Origin: a virus
Taxonomy: Duplodnaviria > Heunggongvirae > Uroviricota > Caudoviricetes
DNA length: 10,722 nt
Direction: 5' to 3' (one strand)
Virus record (IMG/VR): IMGVR_UViG_2531839662_000041
Location: 1-10,722 of that record
Part shown: one piece after another, positions 1 to 10,722 of the stretch
Layout: every line of letters starts with the position of its first letter
Position numbering within the stretch: the stretch's first letter is position 1
Translations under genes and position numbers: made by a program
Notes under the pieces: model-generated
The model's input: the letters and a program-made list of their open reading frames with translations, nothing else
Database searches by the model: none
What the model was told of the DNA's origin: nothing

Positions 1-1701
1 TTAAGGTGTGGGTTGTGCCTCTTTGGTTGAGGGTTGCGTCGTTGCTGACTTAACGGTCGGACGCGTCGCCGGAACATTGTCACACGGTTGCTCTTTCGGG
101 CAGATCAAATCCAGCATTTTCAGCGTCACGCCATTGGTCCAGCCAAAGCCATCCTGTAATGGATATTCGCCACCGCCGCCCCCCGTTCCGGTGGTGCTGA
201 CATCATATTTTTCCACCAGCTTTTTCTCCCGGTCATAGGTGTGCTGAACATTGGTCAGGAAGTGCCAGCTAATGTCCATCGCCACCTCTTTTTGCCCGTA
301 GTTTTGTAATCCTTCTGTCGCGACCCACTGTAACGGTGCCCAGCCATTTGGCGCATCCCATTGTTGCCCACTTTTCACCGACGTGGTGTTCAGGCCGCCG
401 GGTTGCAGCAGATGTGTTTTCGTCGCCGTCGCCATTTTGTTGGCGCGATCTTTCGCTGCCGCATTGACGTACAGCGGGAACAGGGCGGCCGCGGTTAACT
501 GATTGCGCACTTTATGACTTTTCAGGTCGTAATCGGCATACCAGCCTTGTTGATCGTTCCACAGGTATTTTTCGATCCCTTTTTGACGGGCATTTGCCAG
601 CGTTTCGTACTGGTTTGCCATCGCGTTATCTCCGGCAGCTTTGCTGGCGCGGGCGAGGATTTTTTCCATTTTAAACATCAGGCTGTTCAGATCGACCGGT
701 ACGATGCTGGTGGTGCGTAAGGTATTTAACTGCTGCGGGTTGTCCATCCAGCGCGAGCTGAAATCCCAGCCAGACGCAGCGGCAGAGCGCAGGTCGCGGT
801 AAATTTCAGTGGCAGGTCGATTCGGATTGCTTTTGGCGGTGGCAATATCTTCCACCCATGACTCTGGTCGTGGCGTATCGCGATCGTCCCAGTAGCGGTT
901 GAGAAGGGTACCATCCTGAAGTTTGACAACGCGTTTTTCCTGTTGTCCGGCTTGCAGGTTTTCAACACCGTCCATCCAGTAAGCATATTCTTTTTGCATT
1001 TGCGGCAGGTATTGCTTCAACGCGGCATCGCCTTCATGCTGCGCCAGTAACTCTACCATCAGGGCAAAGAAGGGCGGTTGCGAGCGGCTTAAATAGTAAC
1101 TGCGGTTGCCGTTGGGAATATGACCGTAAGTGTCTATTTCATGAGCAAAATTGGCCACCATATTCGCGACTTTATCCCAGTGACCGCTTTCGGCAAGTCC
1201 TAACATGGTGAAGTAACTGTCCCAGTAATATACCTCGCGAAAGCGTCCGCCCGGCACGACATAAGGTTCCGGCAGCGGTAACAGAGAATCCCATTTTTCG
1301 GTGTTTTCGGTAGAACGCGTTAATACCGGCCAAAGTCCGTCAATATGTTCGCGCAGTGACTGCCCCTCTGGCGGAACATATTTCTCGCCTTCTTTCGGCA
1401 GGGTGAAATTGACGTTAACGAAATGGCGCAGATCAAATCCGCTCTGGTTTTGCTGCATCCGATAATCAGCAAGGATCATCAGCGGATCGCTGTTCGGCAC
1501 GGCATCGGCAAAGGTTTTTTGGTCCGGAAAAAGTTTGGCGTTTTGCACATCATTAAACAGCGGCCCTAATAAAATATCAGGCGGCTGTGGTGTTACCGGT
1601 GTTTCTTCTGCCTGCACCGATAGCGCAGCGAAACACAAAAAGATACAGGCTGGAATTAACGCCATTTTTTGCGGGCGAGAAGGTGCGGGGGATTTCATCA
1701 A
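1..1701 (-). CDS. treA: Periplasmic trehalase TreA (complete, 566 aa; stop codon at window bases 1-3)
   Basis: The 566-aa translation begins [30 protein letters not shown], a typical Sec signal peptide, and continues with sequence I recognise as E. coli periplasmic trehalase (GH37), including the Gly-rich [21 protein letters not shown] segment near the C-terminus. Length matches the ~565-aa TreA I recall. Identity is from memory, not a search. Confidence 0.95.
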
Positions 1702-1831
1702 TCATTCTCCTTTGGCGAAACCGAATAAAACGGTATTCAAGTATCAGAAAACCTTAGTTCAGGATCGCACTAGCTGCATGATCGAAATCTCATTCTGCGA
1801 ACTGTCAGGCATTTTAGAAAAGGGAATGTAT

Positions 1832-1853
1832 TGATTCACTTGAAGTACGAAAA
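1832..1853 (+). other. MuA transposase end-binding site L1 (attL)
   Basis: TGATTCACTTGAAGTACGAAAA matches the 22-bp MuA end-site consensus TGNTTCAYTNNAARYRCGAAAA at every specified position, 5 bp in from the TG terminus. Confidence 0.85.
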
Positions 1854-1936
1854 AAACCGGGAGGACATTGGATTATTCGGGATTTGGCGGGATTAGATTT
1901 TGTGGGGCTTGCAAGCCTGTAGGACAGATTTTAGCC

Positions 1937-1958
1937 GTTACATCTTGAAACGCGAAAG
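1937..1958 (+). other. Degenerate MuA end-binding site (L2-like; right half matches consensus)
   Basis: The right half CTTGAAACGCGAAAG fits YTNNAARYRCGAAA(A/G); the left half is diverged. Its position relative to L1 corresponds to where I recall Mu L2. Confidence 0.45.
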
Positions 1959-1976
1959 ATTGTTGGAAACAGCTTT

Positions 1977-1998
1977 TGATTCATTAAAGACACGAAAA
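1977..1998 (+). other. MuA transposase end-binding site (L3-like)
   Basis: TGATTCATTAAAGACACGAAAA matches the 22-bp consensus with one mismatch. Confidence 0.7.
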
Positions 1999-2165
1999 GC
2001 AATTACTTCACGCATCATTTCAAGTACAGCTTCAAAAATGCTTCAAAAACGGTAACAACCAGGCTTTCAGCAAGTGATGTGTGTCAAAAATAATCATCAC
2101 TGTTTGGGTATCTTACATATGTAATTACCTGGAGTGAAGTTTATGTCTTAGCTATTACCTGGTTG

Positions 2166-2690
2166 TTATACAGCTTTCTTTACATCGTTTTCTCTTACAG
2201 GGAAATTATGTTCTTTGCCTTCATACTGAGACAAAATCTCTCTCACTTTTTCCGGTGGTAATGCCTGAAGAGTTTGCAGGGTTTTCTGTTGCTCCACAGT
2301 AATCCCTAATGCCTCTAATGCCTTATCTTTACTGACAATTGTAGGCATAAGTCCTTTAATCCCTGCTACACGAATGATCTCCACAGCTGCGGCCTGCTCA
2401 TCTGGTGTTAAGAAGCTCATTGCATAAATTAGCCTCTCATCAACTGTATGGGCGATTGATGTATGCACTGGTTTATCAGAAAGTGAGGCTCCTTTAATGG
2501 CCCTGCGTGTTTCTTCTGGCAGACTGTTGATGTGATACTCATAAGCGACACCTTTCCCACCGTGACGCTGACGTTTTACCCAATCTTCCGCCACAGCTTT
2601 CCTGGTAATGTTAGTCGCCAACTTTGGTACACCAGGCATCCCTTCCAGCTCTTTCGCATTAAACCATTCTTTGATTTCAAAAGACATCAT
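2166..2690 (-). CDS. c: Mu/D108-type prophage repressor c (174 aa)
   Basis: Divergent from ner and immediately right of attL, as in Mu. The C-terminal region (LPPEKVREILSQYEG ... VKKAV) resembles the Mu repressor C-terminus as I recall it (LPEEKRKEILSKYG ... VKKAV). The N-terminus ([25 protein letters not shown]) is paralogous to the N-terminus of the transposase in this window. ATG start with an AGGA Shine-Dalgarno 6 nt upstream on the minus strand. Confidence 0.85.
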   Translation of the reverse strand: MMSFEIKEWFNAKELEGMPGVPKLATNITRKAVAEDWVKRQRHGGKGVAYEYHINSLPEETRRAIKGASLSDKPVHTSIAHTVDERLIYAMSFLTPDEQAAAVEIIRVAGIKGLMPTIVSKDKALEALGITVEQQKTLQTLQALPPEKVREILSQYEGKEHNFPVRENDVKKAV

Positions 2691-2875: not shown

Positions 2876-3097
2876 ATGCATATGAATAAAAGAACTAACC
2901 GCCAAGATTGGCACAGAGCTGACATCGTTGCAGAGCTACGAAAACGCAATATGTCACTAGCTGAATTGGGAAGATCTAATCATCTTTCGTCTTCAACATT
3001 AAAAAATGCTTTGGATAAGAGATATCCGAAAGCGGAGAAAATCATTGCAGATGCACTGGGAATGACACCGCAAGATATTTGGCCGTCTCGATACTAG
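2876..3097 (+). CDS. ner: Ner-like DNA-binding protein (negative regulator of early transcription; Nlp/SfsB family), 73 aa
   Basis: The translation ([23 protein letters not shown] ... [19 protein letters not shown]) closely parallels Mu Ner as I recall it (DWHRADVIAGLKKRKLSLSALSR ... IWPSRY). AGGA lies 9 nt upstream of the ATG at 2876. Position is immediately upstream of A, as in Mu. Confidence 0.88.
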
Positions 3098-3104
3098 GTG
3101 CGCT

Positions 3105-5093
3105 ATGAAAGAATGGTATACAGCAAAAGAGTTGCTCGGTTTGGCAGGTTTACCAAAGCAAGCCACTAACATTACACGTAAGGCACAAAGAGAAGGCTGG
3201 GAGTTCAGGCAGGTTGCAGGGACTAAAGGTGTATCATTTGAATTCAATATCAAATCATTCCCTGTCGCATTACGTGCTGAAATTCTGTTGCAACAAGGGA
3301 GAATTGAAACCAGTCAGGGGTATTTTGAAATCGCCCGCCCCACGCTGGAAGCCCATGATTATGATCGTGAGGCACTGTGGAGCAAATGGGATAACGCCAG
3401 CGATTCCCAGCGCAGACTTGCTGAAAAATGGTTGCCTGCGGTTCAGGCTGCAGACGAAATGCTGAACCAGGGGATTTCAACGAAAACGGCATTTGCGACC
3501 GTTGCAGGACATTACCAGGTCAGCGCATCCACTTTGCGAGACAAATATTACCAGGTACAGAAGTTTGCGAAGCCTGACTGGGCGGCTGCGCTTGTTGATG
3601 GACGTGGTGCATCCCGTCGCAACGTTCACAAAAGTGAATTTGACGAGGATGCCTGGCAGTTTCTGATTGCAGATTATCTGCGACCAGAAAAACCCGCCTT
3701 TCGCAAATGTTATGAGCGTCTGGAACTGGCAGCCCGCGAGCATGGCTGGAGTATTCCCTCCCGTGCCACGGCCTTTCGCCGGATTCAGCAACTGGACGAG
3801 GCAATGGTTGTTGCCTGCCGTGAAGGTGAACATGCACTGATGCATCTGATACCGGCACAGCAGCGAACTGTGGAACACCTGGACGCCATGCAGTGGATCA
3901 ACGGCGACGGTTATCTGCATAACGTCTTTGTACGCTGGTTTAACGGTGATGTGATCCGCCCGAAAACATGGTTCTGGCAGGATGTGAAAACCCGAAAAAT
4001 TCTGGGCTGGCGCTGCGATGTGAGCGAGAACATTGATTCAATTCGCCTCTCGTTCATGGATGTGGTGACACGCTACGGCATCCCGGAAGATTTTCACATC
4101 ACCATTGATAACACCCGTGGGGCAGCGAATAAATGGCTGACGGGGGGCGCGCCCAATCGTTACCGCTTTAAGGTGAAAGAGGACGATCCAAAGGGACTGT
4201 TTTTACTGATGGGCGCGAAAATGCACTGGACAAGCGTTGTTGCCGGTAAAGGCTGGGGCCAGGCAAAACCTGTTGAACGTGCTTTCGGTGTTGGTGGGCT
4301 TGAGGAATACGTTGATAAGCATCCGGCACTGGCTGGCGCATATACGGGGCCAAATCCGCAGGCAAAACCTGATAACTATGGCGACCGTGCTGTTGATGCA
4401 GAGCTGTTTCTGAAAACCCTTGCTGAAGGTGTGGCGATGTTCAATGCCAGAACAGGCCGTGAAACAGAAATGTGCGGGGGCAAACTCTCGTTTGATGATG
4501 TTTTCGAGCGTGAATACGCCAGAACGATTGTGCGTAAGCCAACCGAAGAACAAAAACGGATGCTGTTACTGCCTGCCGAAGCGGTGAACGTTTCACGCAA
4601 AGGCGAGTTTACGCTTAAAGTTGGCGGCTCCCTTAAAGGCGCGAAAAACGTTTATTACAACATGGCGTTAATGAATGCAGGCGTGAAAAAAGTTGTGGTC
4701 AGGTTTGATCCGCAGCAGCTACACAGCACAGTTTATTGCTACACCCTGGACGGTCGGTTTATCTGTGAAGCGGAATGTCTGGCACCTGTTGCATTTAATG
4801 ATGCTGCGGCAGGCCGTGAATATCGCCGCCGCCAGAAACAACTGAAATCTGCAACTAAAGCAGCCATTAAGGCGCAGAAACAAATGGACGCGCTGGAAGT
4901 TGCTGAACTGCTGCCGCAGATAGCCGAACCAGCAGCACCAGAATCAAGGGTTGTTGGTATTTTCCGGCCTGTGGGTAACACAGTACGGGTTAAATATCGC
5001 ACCCCCGATGATAAATACGAACCCGCTCGTGATGAATATCTGAATCAGTCACTGGATATTCTGGAACAGAAAAGACGTAAAAAAGCCATTTAA
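3105..5093 (+). CDS. A: Mu-type DDE transposase A (662 aa)
   Basis: Length is close to MuA (663 aa as I recall). The catalytic DDE triad is visible in conserved context: D268 in [15 protein letters not shown] (codon at 3906-3908), D335 in [14 protein letters not shown] (4107-4109), and E391 in AKPVERAF (4275-4277), matching MuA D269/D336/E392 spacing. The N-terminal winged-helix region is paralogous to the repressor N-terminus. Confidence 0.95.
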
Positions 5094-5131: not shown

Positions 5132-6091
5132 ATGAATATTTCCGATATTCGCGCAGGACTGCGCACGCTTGTAGAAAATGGAGAAACCACGCTGACACGC
5201 ATCGCCAGTGAATCAGGCGTGGCCCTGAGCACAGTCAGTGGTTTTGTGAATGATAAATATAACGGCAACATGGAATCAGTCGGGCGCACACTGGAACGCT
5301 GGCTGGAAAACTATCACCGCGCAGAAGAACTGCCGGAACCCCCGCGTTTTGTGGAAACTGCAACAGCCCGTCAAATCTGGACAAGTATGCGTTTTGCTAA
5401 TCTGACCGGAACCATTGCTGTTATCTGCGGTAATCCAGGAGTGGGTAAAAGCGAAGCAGCCCGTGAATTTTGTCGCACTAATAATAATGTCTGGATGATC
5501 ACCATTGCGCCATCCCGTGCCAGTACGCTGGAATGTCTGACTGAACTTGCCGAAGAGTTGGGAATGAATAATGCACCATGTCGCAAAGGACCGCTTTCCC
5601 GTAACCTGCGTCGCCGCCTGAAAGGAACGCAGGGACTGGTCATTGTTGACGAAGCTGATCACCTTGACACCGAAGCGCTGGAAGAGCTCCGTCTGTTACA
5701 GGAGTCCGCCTGTATTGGTCTTGTTCTGATGGGGAATCACCGTGTTTATTCAAATATGACCGCTAATGGCGACAGAACAATTGAGTTTGCCCGTCTGTTT
5801 TCCCGTATTGCAAAGCGCACAGCAATTAATAAAACCAAAGAAGACGATGTAAACGCAATTGCGGATGCCTGGCAGATTACCGGGAAAAATGAACGGGAAT
5901 TATTACAGCAGATTGCACAAACGCCTGGTGCGCTCCGCATTATGAATCAAACGCTGCGCCTTGCTGTTATGAATGCCTTCGGTAAAGGCGAACGTGTTAA
6001 TGAGGATTATCTGCGTGAGGCTTACAAAGAGTTAGACCAGGACGTTGATGTTTCGATGCTGCTGGGTGTGCAAGGGGATGCTGAATCATGA
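5132..6091 (+). CDS. B: Mu B-type AAA+ ATPase (target DNA activator for transposition), 319 aa
   Basis: N-terminus [16 protein letters not shown] and most of the protein closely match MuB as I recall it. Walker A GNPGVGKS and Walker [11 protein letters not shown] are present. GAGG Shine-Dalgarno 8 nt upstream of the ATG. Confidence 0.95.
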
Positions 6092-7383: not shown

Positions 7384-7908
7384 ATGGCTAAACCAGCAAA
7401 ACGAATCAAGAATGCCGCAGCGGCTTATGTTCCACAGTCCCGCGATGCCGTGGTATGTGATATCCGCCGGATTGGTGACCTGCAACGCGAAGCGGCACGA
7501 CTTGAAACGGAAATGAATGACGCTATCGCTGAAATTACAGAGAAATACGCCTCACAGATTGCGCCGCTAAAAACCAGTATCGAAACCCTTTCAAAAGGCG
7601 TTCAGGGATGGTGTGAAGCGAACCGTGACGAACTGACGAACGGCGGCAAGGTGAAGACGGCGAACCTGGTAACCGGCGATGTGTCATGGCGTCAGCGCCC
7701 ACCATCGGTAAGTATTCGCGGTGTGGATGCGGTGATGGAAACACTGGAGCGTCTTGGCCTGCAACGCTTTATTCGCACGAAACAGGAAATCAACAAGGAA
7801 GCGATTTTACTGGAACCGAAAGCGGTCGCAGGTGTTGCCGGAATTACAGTTAAATCAGGCATTGAAGATTTTTCTATTATTCCGTTTGAACAGGAAGCCG
7901 GTATTTAA
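7384..7908 (+). CDS. gam: Gam, host-nuclease inhibitor / DNA-end-binding protein (Ku-like), 174 aa
   Basis: The translation MAKPAKRIKNAAAAYVPQSRDAV ... LETEMNDAIAEITEKYA ... GWCEANRDELTNGGKVKTANLVTGDVSWR ... FSIIPFEQEAGI is near-identical to Mu Gam as I recall it, and the same length (174 aa). AGGAG Shine-Dalgarno upstream. Confidence 0.93.
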   Translation: MAKPAKRIKNAAAAYVPQSRDAVVCDIRRIGDLQREAARLETEMNDAIAEITEKYASQIAPLKTSIETLSKGVQGWCEANRDELTNGGKVKTANLVTGDVSWRQRPPSVSIRGVDAVMETLERLGLQRFIRTKQEINKEAILLEPKAVAGVAGITVKSGIEDFSIIPFEQEAGI

Positions 7909-8006: not shown

Positions 8007-8546
8007 ATGGTTGATGCAAAAGTTCTGAACGGTGTCAGTACATTATTACGGGCTTACGGACGTCTGACCTGTGGCGTTCTGGCGGAAAAAATGAATATGC
8101 CACCTTCTTCAATGGTGTATTTCCTGCGTGATGCGGTTGATGCCGGAGTTCTCACTGAATGCAACGGATTTTATGACGTTCCGCGCCCTCGTCCGACGCC
8201 GCCAGTAAGACGAAACGCAACGGAGCACCCCGCTGTTGATGATGCTCAATGGTGCGCTTTCCGCCGCTCTTTGCCCTGGCTGGAAGGCAATGCCATTCCG
8301 GCACTGGCAAAAGAATTTGCGACAGGCGTACTGACCTGCGAGTCGGTTTACATCGTTGCTGAAGTGGATGACGAGATGTGCAAACAGGGGATGCCCCGTT
8401 TTGTGATGGCGTATATCGATATCCGACTGGGACGTTTTATTTGTGGCTCCAGTGGCTGGAATATCACCGACCACGTCCTGCGCTATCTCATTCTTGATTA
8501 TTCACCGGTTCCGGCGGCAACACAGGATGTCAGCGAGCATGGTTAA
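8007..8546 (+). CDS. Hypothetical early-region protein (179 aa) with an N-terminal winged-helix-like segment and a Pro/Arg-rich linker
   Basis: ATG with GAGGAA Shine-Dalgarno 6 nt upstream. The N-terminal LRAYGRLTCGVLAEKMNMPPSSMVYFLRDAVDAGVLTE resembles a MarR/Lrp-type winged helix, followed by a PRPRPTPPVRR linker. Function unknown. Confidence 0.6.
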   Translation: MVDAKVLNGVSTLLRAYGRLTCGVLAEKMNMPPSSMVYFLRDAVDAGVLTECNGFYDVPRPRPTPPVRRNATEHPAVDDAQWCAFRRSLPWLEGNAIPALAKEFATGVLTCESVYIVAEVDDEMCKQGMPRFVMAYIDIRLGRFICGSSGWNITDHVLRYLILDYSPVPAATQDVSEHG

Positions 8547-8721
8547 GTCAATTGGCTTTGTCCTGCTGGTTGGTACTTGCGGGAATGATGCCTGTGATGC
8601 CATTCCGGTAACAGAAAAAATCTGGCCCACAGAACAGGCATGTATGCAGGTGATGGAGCGCATACAAAAACGTTATCCCAGTGAAATCTTTTATTGCGAA
8701 GAGGTATTAAGAAATGAATAA
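8527..8721 (+). CDS. Small hypothetical protein (about 60-64 aa) with a hydrophobic N-terminus; start uncertain (ATG at 8527 or 8539)
   Basis: The ORF-track entry 8443..8721 extends upstream in a frame that overlaps the previous gene. The plausible product is MSASMVKSIGFVLLVGTCGND... Its stop codon overlaps the start of the next ORF (ATG 8714 / TAA 8719-8721), suggesting coupling within the operon. Confidence 0.35.
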   Translation: MSASMVKSIGFVLLVGTCGNDACDAIPVTEKIWPTEQACMQVMERIQKRYPSEIFYCEEVLRNE

Positions 8722-9103
8722 CGCAGAGAAAAATGAAATTAAATCCGCATCCGCCAGCACCAGAAAGCATCTTCATGATTTTTATGTTGCCTATAACCAG
8801 TGGTTAAAAAATGGTGTACCAGAAACAGAGGGTGAAATATTTGTTCAATATTCAGGATTATGTACAAATGCTTGTCGTTATTTTGACGAAATCGGAGTGG
8901 ATACCGAAGATATATTAGAACAATTACGTGCAGATTTTATCGCGAACGAGTTGGATGAATTATTACCTTTCAATGAAAGTGGAACGCACTATCATGAGGA
9001 ATGCAGACTTGGCAGATGTCACCTGAATTCTGCTCGTGTGGCATGGGTCGAAAAACACTGCATTAAGGAGATGGGACATAATGAGCCGCACATCCCTGAT
9101 TAA
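8714..9103 (+). CDS. Hypothetical acidic Cys/His-rich protein (129 aa), encoded in a visibly AT-rich segment
   Basis: ATG at 8714 overlaps the preceding small ORF's stop. The translation is rich in D/E and carries C-x3-C (CTNAC) plus HYHEEC-x4-CH ... HC, possibly a zinc-binding fold. By hand count of three 60-bp blocks (8714-8893) G+C is about 40%, 37% and 28%, against roughly 50% in neighbouring genes. These are eye estimates. Confidence 0.6.
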   Translation: MNNAEKNEIKSASASTRKHLHDFYVAYNQWLKNGVPETEGEIFVQYSGLCTNACRYFDEIGVDTEDILEQLRADFIANELDELLPFNESGTHYHEECRLGRCHLNSARVAWVEKHCIKEMGHNEPHIPD

Positions 9104-9632
9104 ATTAATTCATGTCGCCCGTCGGGAATTGCAACTTGACGATGACACTTACCGCGCCTTTCTGGTGCAGTGCACGGGCAAAACCAGTTGCCGCGAGCTG
9201 TCCGTTGCACAACTGGAACGGGTGCTCGATGCCATGAAAGAGCGCGGTTTTAAGAAGCAGAAAAAACATCCCCGCCGTCGCTTTAAGGGGCATGTCACAC
9301 CACGCGAGAAGATTTACAAAATCTGGCAGCAGATGTTTCTTGATGGTTTCGTCTCCGATATCAGCGACGCCGCGCTGGACAAATACGTTGAACGCCTGAC
9401 GGCCAGACGTAATGGCGGTCAGGGTGTTTCCACGCTGGCCTGGTGTCACGGGGAATCGTTGCAGGTTGTGCTCGAAACGCTCAAACAGTGGCACATGCGC
9501 TGCATCCGTGAAGCCTTTGCCCGACATGGTGTGCCTTTACCTGTAAGCCCATCCGGGCGGGAACTGCGCGGCTATGATGCACTGACCAGTGCATATGCCC
9601 GCGCACGAAACAGCGGGAGAATTGCTGTATGA
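9081..9632 (+). CDS. gemA: GemA-like protein (Mu gp16 family, DUF1018), 183 aa
   Basis: The ORF-track entry begins at a GTG (9036). The likely start is the ATG at 9081 (MSRTSLIKLIHVARRELQLDDDTYRAFL...), with AGGAG 10 nt upstream. Position immediately upstream of mor, with an ATGA stop/start overlap into mor, matches Mu gemA-mor. Sequence identity is recalled with moderate certainty only. Confidence 0.7.
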   Translation: MSRTSLIKLIHVARRELQLDDDTYRAFLVQCTGKTSCRELSVAQLERVLDAMKERGFKKQKKHPRRRFKGHVTPREKIYKIWQQMFLDGFVSDISDAALDKYVERLTARRNGGQGVSTLAWCHGESLQVVLETLKQWHMRCIREAFARHGVPLPVSPSGRELRGYDALTSAYARARNSGRIAV

Positions 9633-10078
9633 AACAGATGAAAGAGCAGGATTTGTTCGAAGACCTTCGGGACGACAGCGTTCTGGAATATCTTCATGAT
9701 TACCAGGAAAACACCGCTTATCCGGCGTTACTTTCTGAACTGAACGCACTGCTGCGTAAAGAGCTGGCCCGGATTGGCGCAGACCCTGCCCATTCCCTTG
9801 AGCTGGTTGTGGCGATTTGTCGCCATATCGGCGGGATGCAGGTTTATGTTCCGAGGGGGAATATTCTGGAGAATCTTGTCCGGGATATGCGTATCTGGCG
9901 TGATTTTAACGGCCATAATATTCCTGAACTGGTTCAGCGTTACGGGGTGACGTATAAAACCGTCTACAAGGCCATCAAACGGATGCGACGTCTGGAGCGC
10001 AATAAATACCAGCCGGATTTGTTTTACCTCTCCCCGAACCTGCCTCACCCCGTTCGTCGTCCGCCACGACGCCCTTAA
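9629..10078 (+). CDS. mor: Mor-family middle-operon transcriptional activator (149 aa)
   Basis: DLFEDLRDDSVLEYL ... PALLSELNALLRKELARIGADPAHSLELVVAICRHIGGMQVYVPRG ... RDFNGHNIPELVQRYGVTYKTVYKAIKRMRRL parallels Mu Mor as I recall it (DLFGDLQDDTILAHL ... PALLAELNDLLRGELSRLGVDPAHSLEIVVAICKHLGGGQVYIPRG ... VYKAIRRMRRL). It has a C-terminal HTH. ATG overlaps the gemA stop. Confidence 0.9.
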   Translation: MKQMKEQDLFEDLRDDSVLEYLHDYQENTAYPALLSELNALLRKELARIGADPAHSLELVVAICRHIGGMQVYVPRGNILENLVRDMRIWRDFNGHNIPELVQRYGVTYKTVYKAIKRMRRLERNKYQPDLFYLSPNLPHPVRRPPRRP

Positions 10079-10084
10079 TCAATG

Positions 10085-10108
10085 AAGCCGGTAAATCCGG
10101 CTTTTTTT
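10085..10108 (+). terminator. Putative rho-independent terminator downstream of mor
   Basis: Stem AAGCCGG (10085-10091) pairs with CCGGCTT (10097-10103) around a TAAAT loop, followed by a 7-T run (10102-10108), 7 bp after the mor stop codon. In Mu the early transcript terminates after mor. Confidence 0.7.
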
Positions 10109-10164
10109 ATGCCTCCGGCACCATGAAGCAGACCACGTTTAACTCTGCTTCACAGGTGCTTTTT

Positions 10165-10722
10165 ATGGAAAATCTAAAATTATATCTGGCCTTTGAGCGT
10201 GCGCTGAATTTTATTCTGCGTCCTGATATCGAAGGCGTCTATGTCAATGACCCCACTGACCGTGGCGGAGAAACCAGGTACGGCATCTCTGACCGCCGCG
10301 ACGGTGTGATTGACGGCAAAACTGACGTCAACGGTGATGGTAAACCCGACACCCGCATTAAGGATTTTACCCGCGAACAGGTTGCGCAGATTTACTGGCG
10401 CGATTACTGGCTGCCTGCCGGGTGTGACCAGTGGCCTGACAGAGTGGCGCTTTTTGTGTTCGATGCGGCGGTTCAGCATGGTGTTAAAAAAGCCATCAAA
10501 CTTTTGCAGGAAGCCACTGATATCAATGCCGATGGCATCATCGGCCCGCGCACCCGCAGGGCCGTGAACCTGGCTGACCAGAACTGGTTGCTGACCCGCT
10601 GTATTGTCCGTCGTTCCCGCTTTTATGCCGAAATCATCAAATCAAAACCCGCCCAGGGCAAATACCTGAACGGCTGGTTTAACCGCATGGAAAAACTGAC
10701 CGACGCCTGTCTGGAAATCATC
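10165..10722 (+). CDS. GH108-family lysozyme-like protein with peptidoglycan-binding domain (5' partial; 186 codons, runs off the window)
   Basis: Not in the supplied ORF track because no stop codon occurs before the window end. The ATG at 10165 has AGGTG upstream. The translation MENLKLYLAFERALNFILRPDIEGVYVNDPTDRGGETRYGIS ... DFTREQVAQIYWRDYWLPAGCDQWPDRVALFVFDAAVQHGVKKAIKLLQEATDINADGIIGPRTRRAV carries the GH108 signature (EGGY-like VNDP-DRGG-T-YGI, FD-AVN-G) and the PG_binding_3 motif (DGIIGP-T). I translated all 186 codons by hand and found no stop. Confidence 0.8.
   Translation, partial: MENLKLYLAFERALNFILRPDIEGVYVNDPTDRGGETRYGISDRRDGVIDGKTDVNGDGKPDTRIKDFTREQVAQIYWRDYWLPAGCDQWPDRVALFVFDAAVQHGVKKAIKLLQEATDINADGIIGPRTRRAVNLADQNWLLTRCIVRRSRFYAEIIKSKPAQGKYLNGWFNRMEKLTDACLEII

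Follow-up and report, generated by a model that had tools for sequence, protein, structure and literature searches.

Insertions of phage Mu are, classically, strongly polar whichever way they face, and the promoters from which Mu repressors are transcribed are weak and autoregulated. Untranslated prophage transcripts are silenced by Rho. In the database record of phage D108, to which the element treated here is nearly identical at its left end, rho-independent terminators are annotated after genes C and T and none after the repressor gene c; the record of Mu annotates promoters and ribosome-binding sites in the c region, again with no terminator. Searches of the literature on Mu polarity, outward transcription and lysogen RNA-seq yielded nothing directly on the termination of c transcripts, and transcript data for Mu or D108 lysogens were not found. 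The ends of a Mu prophage are reportedly held together in a protein-dependent domain (PMC3820752), and an end-proximal terminator in Tn916 is described, on experimental grounds, as acting as an insulator (PMC11658703).

We examined a window of 10,722 nt, meaning the whole stretch of DNA that was analysed, in which the left part of a D108-type prophage stands next to treA, the gene for periplasmic trehalase. The window differs at 2 of its 10,722 nt from the chromosome of the porcine ETEC strain E. coli UMNF18 (NZ_AGTD01000001.1), and a 701-nt probe spanning the prophage-treA junction is 100% identical to that chromosome. Both differences lie outside the insertion feature (C at 182, where RefSeq UMNF18 has T, and C at 7416, where it has A), and another assembly version or a near-identical strain may have been the source. 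When window positions 1500-2200 were used as a query, two places in the UMNF18 record were returned, and the strain may therefore carry another Mu-like left end, or another c gene, at a different locus.

The prophage, 30,814 bp in length, lies between dhaM and treA. Its first base is 1827 (TGTATTG...), as the preliminary description of this DNA had placed it, and the alignment to D108 begins there at D108 nucleotide 1. Its right end, ...CGCCGCTTCA, comes 30,814 bp farther along the source record and is followed by the second copy of a 5-bp target-site duplication, GGGAA, which occurs only once in the empty site of K-12. Deleting the prophage and one GGGAA in silico restores identity to K-12 MG1655 over 595 of 595 nt. 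In K-12, dhaM is followed by treA on the same strand with a spacer of 319 bp, so that the gene order given in the preliminary description was right. A Mu-type transposition into this spacer, clean and with 5 bp of the target duplicated, accounts for the arrangement. The features of the prophage portion are as follows.

1822-1826, no strand: left copy of the 5-bp target-site duplication GGGAA; the right copy, after the prophage right end, is outside the window
1827-2165, plus strand: non-coding left end (attL) of the D108-type prophage, from alignment to D108 and its misc_features
1837-1853: MuA end-binding site L1, consensus match with at most 1 mismatch
1942-1958: MuA end-binding site L2, 2 mismatches to the consensus, read by eye
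1982-1998: MuA end-binding site L3, consensus match with at most 1 mismatch
1814-1907, minus strand: C-rich, G-poor tract straddling the junction, a candidate Rho loading site by composition of the c-sense RNA
2030-2175, minus strand: candidate non-canonical c terminator, from predicted fold and conservation
2166-2690, minus strand: repressor gene c, 174 aa, D108 immunity type, 172/174 residues identical to D108 c
2691-2875: divergent c-ner control region (operators, Pc, Pe), placed by homology with D108 and Mu
2876-3097, plus strand: ner, intact
3105-5093, plus strand: transposase A, intact
5132-6091, plus strand: transposase B, intact

Several properties place the element in the Mu/D108 group. 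Its termini are of the Mu type (5'-TGTATTG... on the left, ...GCTTCA-3' on the right), the target duplication is 5 bp long, and c runs leftward while ner, A and B follow rightward. The MuA-site pattern YMYNWRAARYRCGAAAR is matched 3 times in the window, where 0.2 matches are expected, and the first 340 nt of the left end differ from D108 at 3 positions in the alignment. Insertion sites across hosts are, moreover, essentially random: the same left end adjoins potE, pduA, ssuA, nrdE, yehR and others elsewhere, no two of the genomes examined agreeing, and a scan of viral contigs with the c protein found seven copies with seven different host flanks. The prophage-treA junction itself is present in 1 of 5,426 complete E. 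coli genomes. Since the prophage family occupies a different site in every genome examined and this junction occurs in only one, the position of the insertion is statistically unremarkable.

The complete particle-making genome of about 37 kb is not present. At 30,814 bp, the prophage has no counterpart of D108 genes 35-38, and the tail-sheath gene L is missing its 5' part. Several further genes are frameshifted or partial, making several pseudogenes, although errors of assembly may account for some of the frameshifts. Judged from gene content, with c, ner, A and B intact, the prophage is probably morphogenesis-defective, yet still transposition-competent and repressed. Megablast similarity to D108, Mu and SfMu ends near 8512, and positions 8513-10722 are divergent up to the gp16-family and Mor genes, which points to a mosaic early or semi-essential region. 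The RefSeq label of c, 'MerR family transcriptional regulator', stands despite the 172/174 identity to D108 c. The C-terminal residues KKAV are common to the c proteins of D108 and Mu, whose overall identity is 29%.

Two consequences for treA had been put forward in the preliminary description, namely that regulatory DNA upstream of the gene was displaced by the prophage and that repressor transcripts could read through attL into it. Both depend on what remains between treA and position 1827, where the following features were located.

1-1698, minus strand: treA (periplasmic trehalase) coding sequence, 565 aa, intact, from the ORF and the RefSeq CDS, with ATG at 1698
1707-1711, minus strand: treA Shine-Dalgarno sequence AGGAG, read from the sequence and conserved in all aligned enterics
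1751-1756, minus strand: treA -10 hexamer TAAGGT of the review table, where C at -13 gives CTAAGGT, of sigma-S type
1774-1779, minus strand: treA -35 hexamer ATGCAG of the review table, mapped on the window
1780-1811, minus strand: conserved block TGCCTGACAGTTCGCAGAATGAGATTTCGATC upstream of the -35, from the Escherichia and enteric alignments, fully retained

Over its full 565 aa, the treA product agrees with an E. coli TreA locus at every residue. The native DNA left in front of the gene is a short stretch, as had been stated, of 128 bp (1699-1826) and not 125 bp, because the RefSeq ATG is at 1698; a TTG at 1701 lies one in-frame codon upstream. For the promoter, a review table citing Repoila & Gutierrez 1991 gives ATGCAG, a 17-bp spacer and TAAGGT (PMC5650638). 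The -10 and -35 columns of that table are evidently swapped, which we judge from ATGCAG lying upstream of TAAGGT in the sequence. The arrangement ATGCAG-N17-TAAGGT has a single occurrence upstream of the gene, at 1779-1751 of the window. A C preceding the -10, as in CTAAGGT, is typical of sigma-S promoters. We infer a transcription start at about 1744-1745, 6-7 nt past the -10, by which reckoning the first base of the prophage stands at about -82 or -83. Between it and the -35 there are still 47 bp of native DNA.

Two other promoter assignments were considered and set aside. GATACT (1741-1746) was rejected as the treA -10, given that CTA[A/T]GGTT is invariant across the enterics and that the review table gives TAAGGT. 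A hybrid promoter at the junction was likewise discarded: GTGAAT-17-TAAAAT takes the place of the native TTTATC-17-TAAAAT, and both score 8/12. A consensus promoter scan with a threshold of 9/12 found nothing at the junction.

Comparison with the treA loci of other species offers a measure of how much regulatory sequence might lie farther upstream. The sample comprised seven Escherichia lineages (UMNF18 and six others) and more distant Enterobacteriaceae; the latter were compared by multiple alignment, local alignments being too noisy for quantitative use. Over the retained 128 bp, 99-126 of the 128 positions match in all six of the other Escherichia lineages. The invariant block across the seven lineages begins with TGCCTGACAG... 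at window position 1811, 15 nt inside the retained DNA, and conservation upstream of treA as a whole ends some 12-15 nt inside it. The 128 bp on the displaced side of the junction, by comparison, show 10-38 matches in three lineages, where a shuffled control averaged 33; judged by these alignments, the displaced DNA is simply absent from the three. In two Escherichia lineages, only 121 nt separate the dhaM stop from the treA ATG, which is less than the 128 bp that UMNF18 has kept. Among the distant Enterobacteriaceae, the conserved elements are CTA[A/T]GGTT (invariant in 16 enterobacterial loci), ACACGC, a GTCTGGAAA...GCAAAA block and the Shine-Dalgarno sequence, and all of them fall within the part matching the retained DNA.

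The insertion footprint thus sets an upstream limit to the conserved treA regulatory region, at about -70 from the inferred start. As far as can be read from the sequence, the full reported promoter lies within the retained DNA, together with all conserved upstream sequence, and the proposal that treA regulatory DNA had been displaced is not supported. The TGCCTGACAGTTCGCAGAATGAGATTTCGATC block may be a regulator-binding site, on the strength of its conservation. A relative of it, GTCTGGAAA...GCAAAA.G, is kept in other Enterobacteriaceae.

The spacer between dhaM and treA is itself polymorphic in Escherichia, at 121 nt in the two lineages mentioned and 319-363 nt in E. coli and a close relative, and the extra 190 bp or so of the E. 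coli spacer opens with a hairpin directly after the dhaM stop. Because 121 nt leaves little room for a terminator, co-transcription of dhaKLM and treA is conceivable, and in the short-spacer lineages treA could, from its spacing, be transcribed with dhaKLM. From this arises one way in which the insertion might lower treA expression, by cutting off readthrough from dhaKLM; the removal of DNA beyond -82, or the placing of an AT-rich, protein-bound prophage end beside the promoter, would be others. The left end of the prophage is indeed AT-rich (38-40% GC, against 51-55% in treA), and the protein-dependent domain formed by Mu ends (PMC3820752) would fit the last of these. However, the genus shows no conservation of the displaced DNA, the E. 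coli hairpin sits right after the dhaM stop, and the treA gene and promoter are both intact. We hold a lowered expression of treA to be improbable.

The opposite effect, an increase, would require transcription to enter treA from the prophage. Gene c lies on the treA strand, as previously described, and from its stop (2168-2166) to the treA ATG (1698) there are 468 nt on the same strand, with no ORF needing translation between. Transcripts from Pc might cross the c stop, the 339-nt left end and attL and enter treA, adding a constitutive, sigma-S-independent component to its expression. As far as sequence goes, such readthrough is possible, since c and treA are co-oriented, 468 nt apart, and have no canonical terminator between them. 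A consensus terminator scan of the minus strand across 1827-2165 detected no canonical intrinsic terminator, and a permissive scan of every U-run found no adjacent compact hairpin better than -9.2 kcal/mol. The remark that no convincing GC-rich stem with a T-tract follows c is accordingly borne out for canonical terminators, by these scans and by the annotations of D108 and Mu alike. Designers of mini-Mu elements, moreover, add terminators against internal readthrough across the Mu ends, as an engineering review relates, from which it would follow that Mu ends do not terminate efficiently by themselves. Gene c is also presumably expressed, because the intact A and B must stay repressed. A promoter-like sequence, TTGCCA-16-CATGAT, occurs in the c-ner region on the minus strand at 2765-2738, as a consensus match only.

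Two candidate termination signals on the same path were overlooked in the preliminary description. The first directly follows c. On the c-sense RNA, a 5' arm UAACAACCAGG (2168-2158, which includes the c stop) is predicted to pair with a 3' arm CCUGGUUGUUA (2063-2053). The stem encloses some 95 nt in a branched domain, and the fold has a dG of -31.9 kcal/mol, a z-score of -4.2 and arm pair probabilities of 0.95-1.0. Downstream of the stem lie two U-runs, at 2050-2044 and 2039-2033 (CCGUUUUUG, then AUUUUUG). The arms recur, together with the U-runs, in D108, Mu, PhiR68_1 and SfMu, which represent four immunity types with repressors as little as 29% identical; in SfMu the interior is unrelated. 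A consensus fold lengthens the stem to AAAGCYG/CGGUUUU, an A-tract/U-tract arrangement.

We suggest that this element may be the terminator of c, on the basis of its predicted fold and its conservation. It would be a non-canonical one, with a 95-nt interior and a U-run starting 2-3 nt after the stem. Covariation was seen in 0 of 17 pairs of the closing stem, so that the support is one of conservation only. The scan of viral contigs with the c protein gave only copies 89-100% identical and did not broaden the comparison. The element is unannotated in any of the D108/Mu-family records examined, and the one Rfam hit, to a snoRNA, was below threshold and due to chance. Part of the 5' arm doubles as the conserved KKAV-stop end of the c coding sequence, and the sequence could be conserved for reasons other than termination.

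The second candidate lies at the prophage exit. RNA that is untranslated over a long distance, rich in C and poor in G has the look of a Rho loading site. The final 100 nt or so of the prophage, read in c sense, are of this kind: positions 1907-1830 reach up to 32% C and 10% G, a C/G ratio of 3.1, and rank among the top 0.15% when 78-nt windows from both strands of the 42.5-kb locus are compared. The c-sense RNA is untranslated for 468 nt and so contains the untranslated C-rich, G-poor stretch of about 80 nt expected of a Rho-dependent terminator. The tract sits between MuA sites L1 and L2, in the transposase-binding region, and may be conserved for reasons of transposition. Both candidates are thus possibly conserved on other accounts, because of their overlap with the KKAV-stop coding sequence and with the L1-L2 region, respectively.

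Set against readthrough from c into treA, then, are a conserved stem with U-runs directly after c and about 470 nt of untranslated RNA bearing an exceptionally C-rich, G-poor tract ahead of treA. Pc, moreover, is probably weak and autoregulated, and Mu insertions are polar both ways. Compared with the induced treA promoter, any such contribution would probably be minor. We consider such readthrough unlikely, though somewhat less so than a lowering of treA expression; an insertion with little or no effect is the reading that we rate highest. Were readthrough to occur, it would amount to a position-dependent lysogenic conversion by a transposable phage in a porcine ETEC lineage. Quite doubtful to us is a bolder proposition, that c transcripts crossing attL give treA a constitutive, rpoS-independent component or, conversely, that the stem and U-runs of Mu, D108, PhiR68_1 and SfMu form a dedicated terminator insulating the left end and the neighbouring host genes.

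An insertion with little or no effect on treA therefore remains our preferred account, and we think it probable: an ordinary, recent, strain-specific Mu-type insertion that spared the whole treA control region. In the UMNF18 lineage, a D108-type prophage entered the spacer between dhaM and treA by transposition, at about -82 from the inferred start, and duplicated GGGAA. The cut was made a short way ahead of all sequence that is conserved, or has been reported, for the expression of treA, and the gene retains its sigma-S-type promoter, the block conserved upstream of it, its 5' untranslated region and its ribosome-binding site. TreA would most likely keep its own stationary-phase and osmotic regulation, with the insertion neutral or nearly so and expression unchanged. 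Leftward repressor transcripts are likely to be few, and most would probably end before or around attL, whether at the conserved stem and U-runs just after the c stop or through the action of Rho on some 470 nt of untranslated, C-rich RNA.

For practical purposes, treA in UMNF18 may be treated as normally regulated until shown otherwise. The case matters little beyond the strain, as one natural D108-type insertion that spares the treA control region. Two by-products of the analysis may be useful: the upstream limit that the footprint places on the conserved treA regulatory region, and a conserved and previously unannotated stem with U-runs downstream of a Mu-family repressor gene, which would be cheap to test as a terminator of c.

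The locus may finally be set beside three known systems. It resembles promoter-proximal insertions of IS elements and transposons, which alter the expression of a neighbouring gene by way of outward or hybrid promoters or by the loss of regulatory DNA. In both, a mobile element has settled a short way upstream of a gene, and one of its own genes is transcribed in that gene's direction. Unlike in those cases, no outward or hybrid promoter has been made here, and the reported promoter and conserved upstream DNA are untouched. With respect to Tn916, as far as its terminator is described in PMC11658703, the stem and U-runs after c could play a comparable role; the prophage element, however, is predicted only, departs from the canonical form, and would stop transcription that leaves the mobile element, not transcription that enters it. 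The closest likeness is to phage D108 itself, which shares a near-identical left end and c, the gene order c-ner-A-B, the MuA sites, TG...CA ends, a 5-bp duplication and variable insertion sites. The D108 genome is 37,235 bp long, against the 30,814 bp of the prophage, and the prophage is mosaic past about 8512. Nothing in the element departs from known Mu biology.
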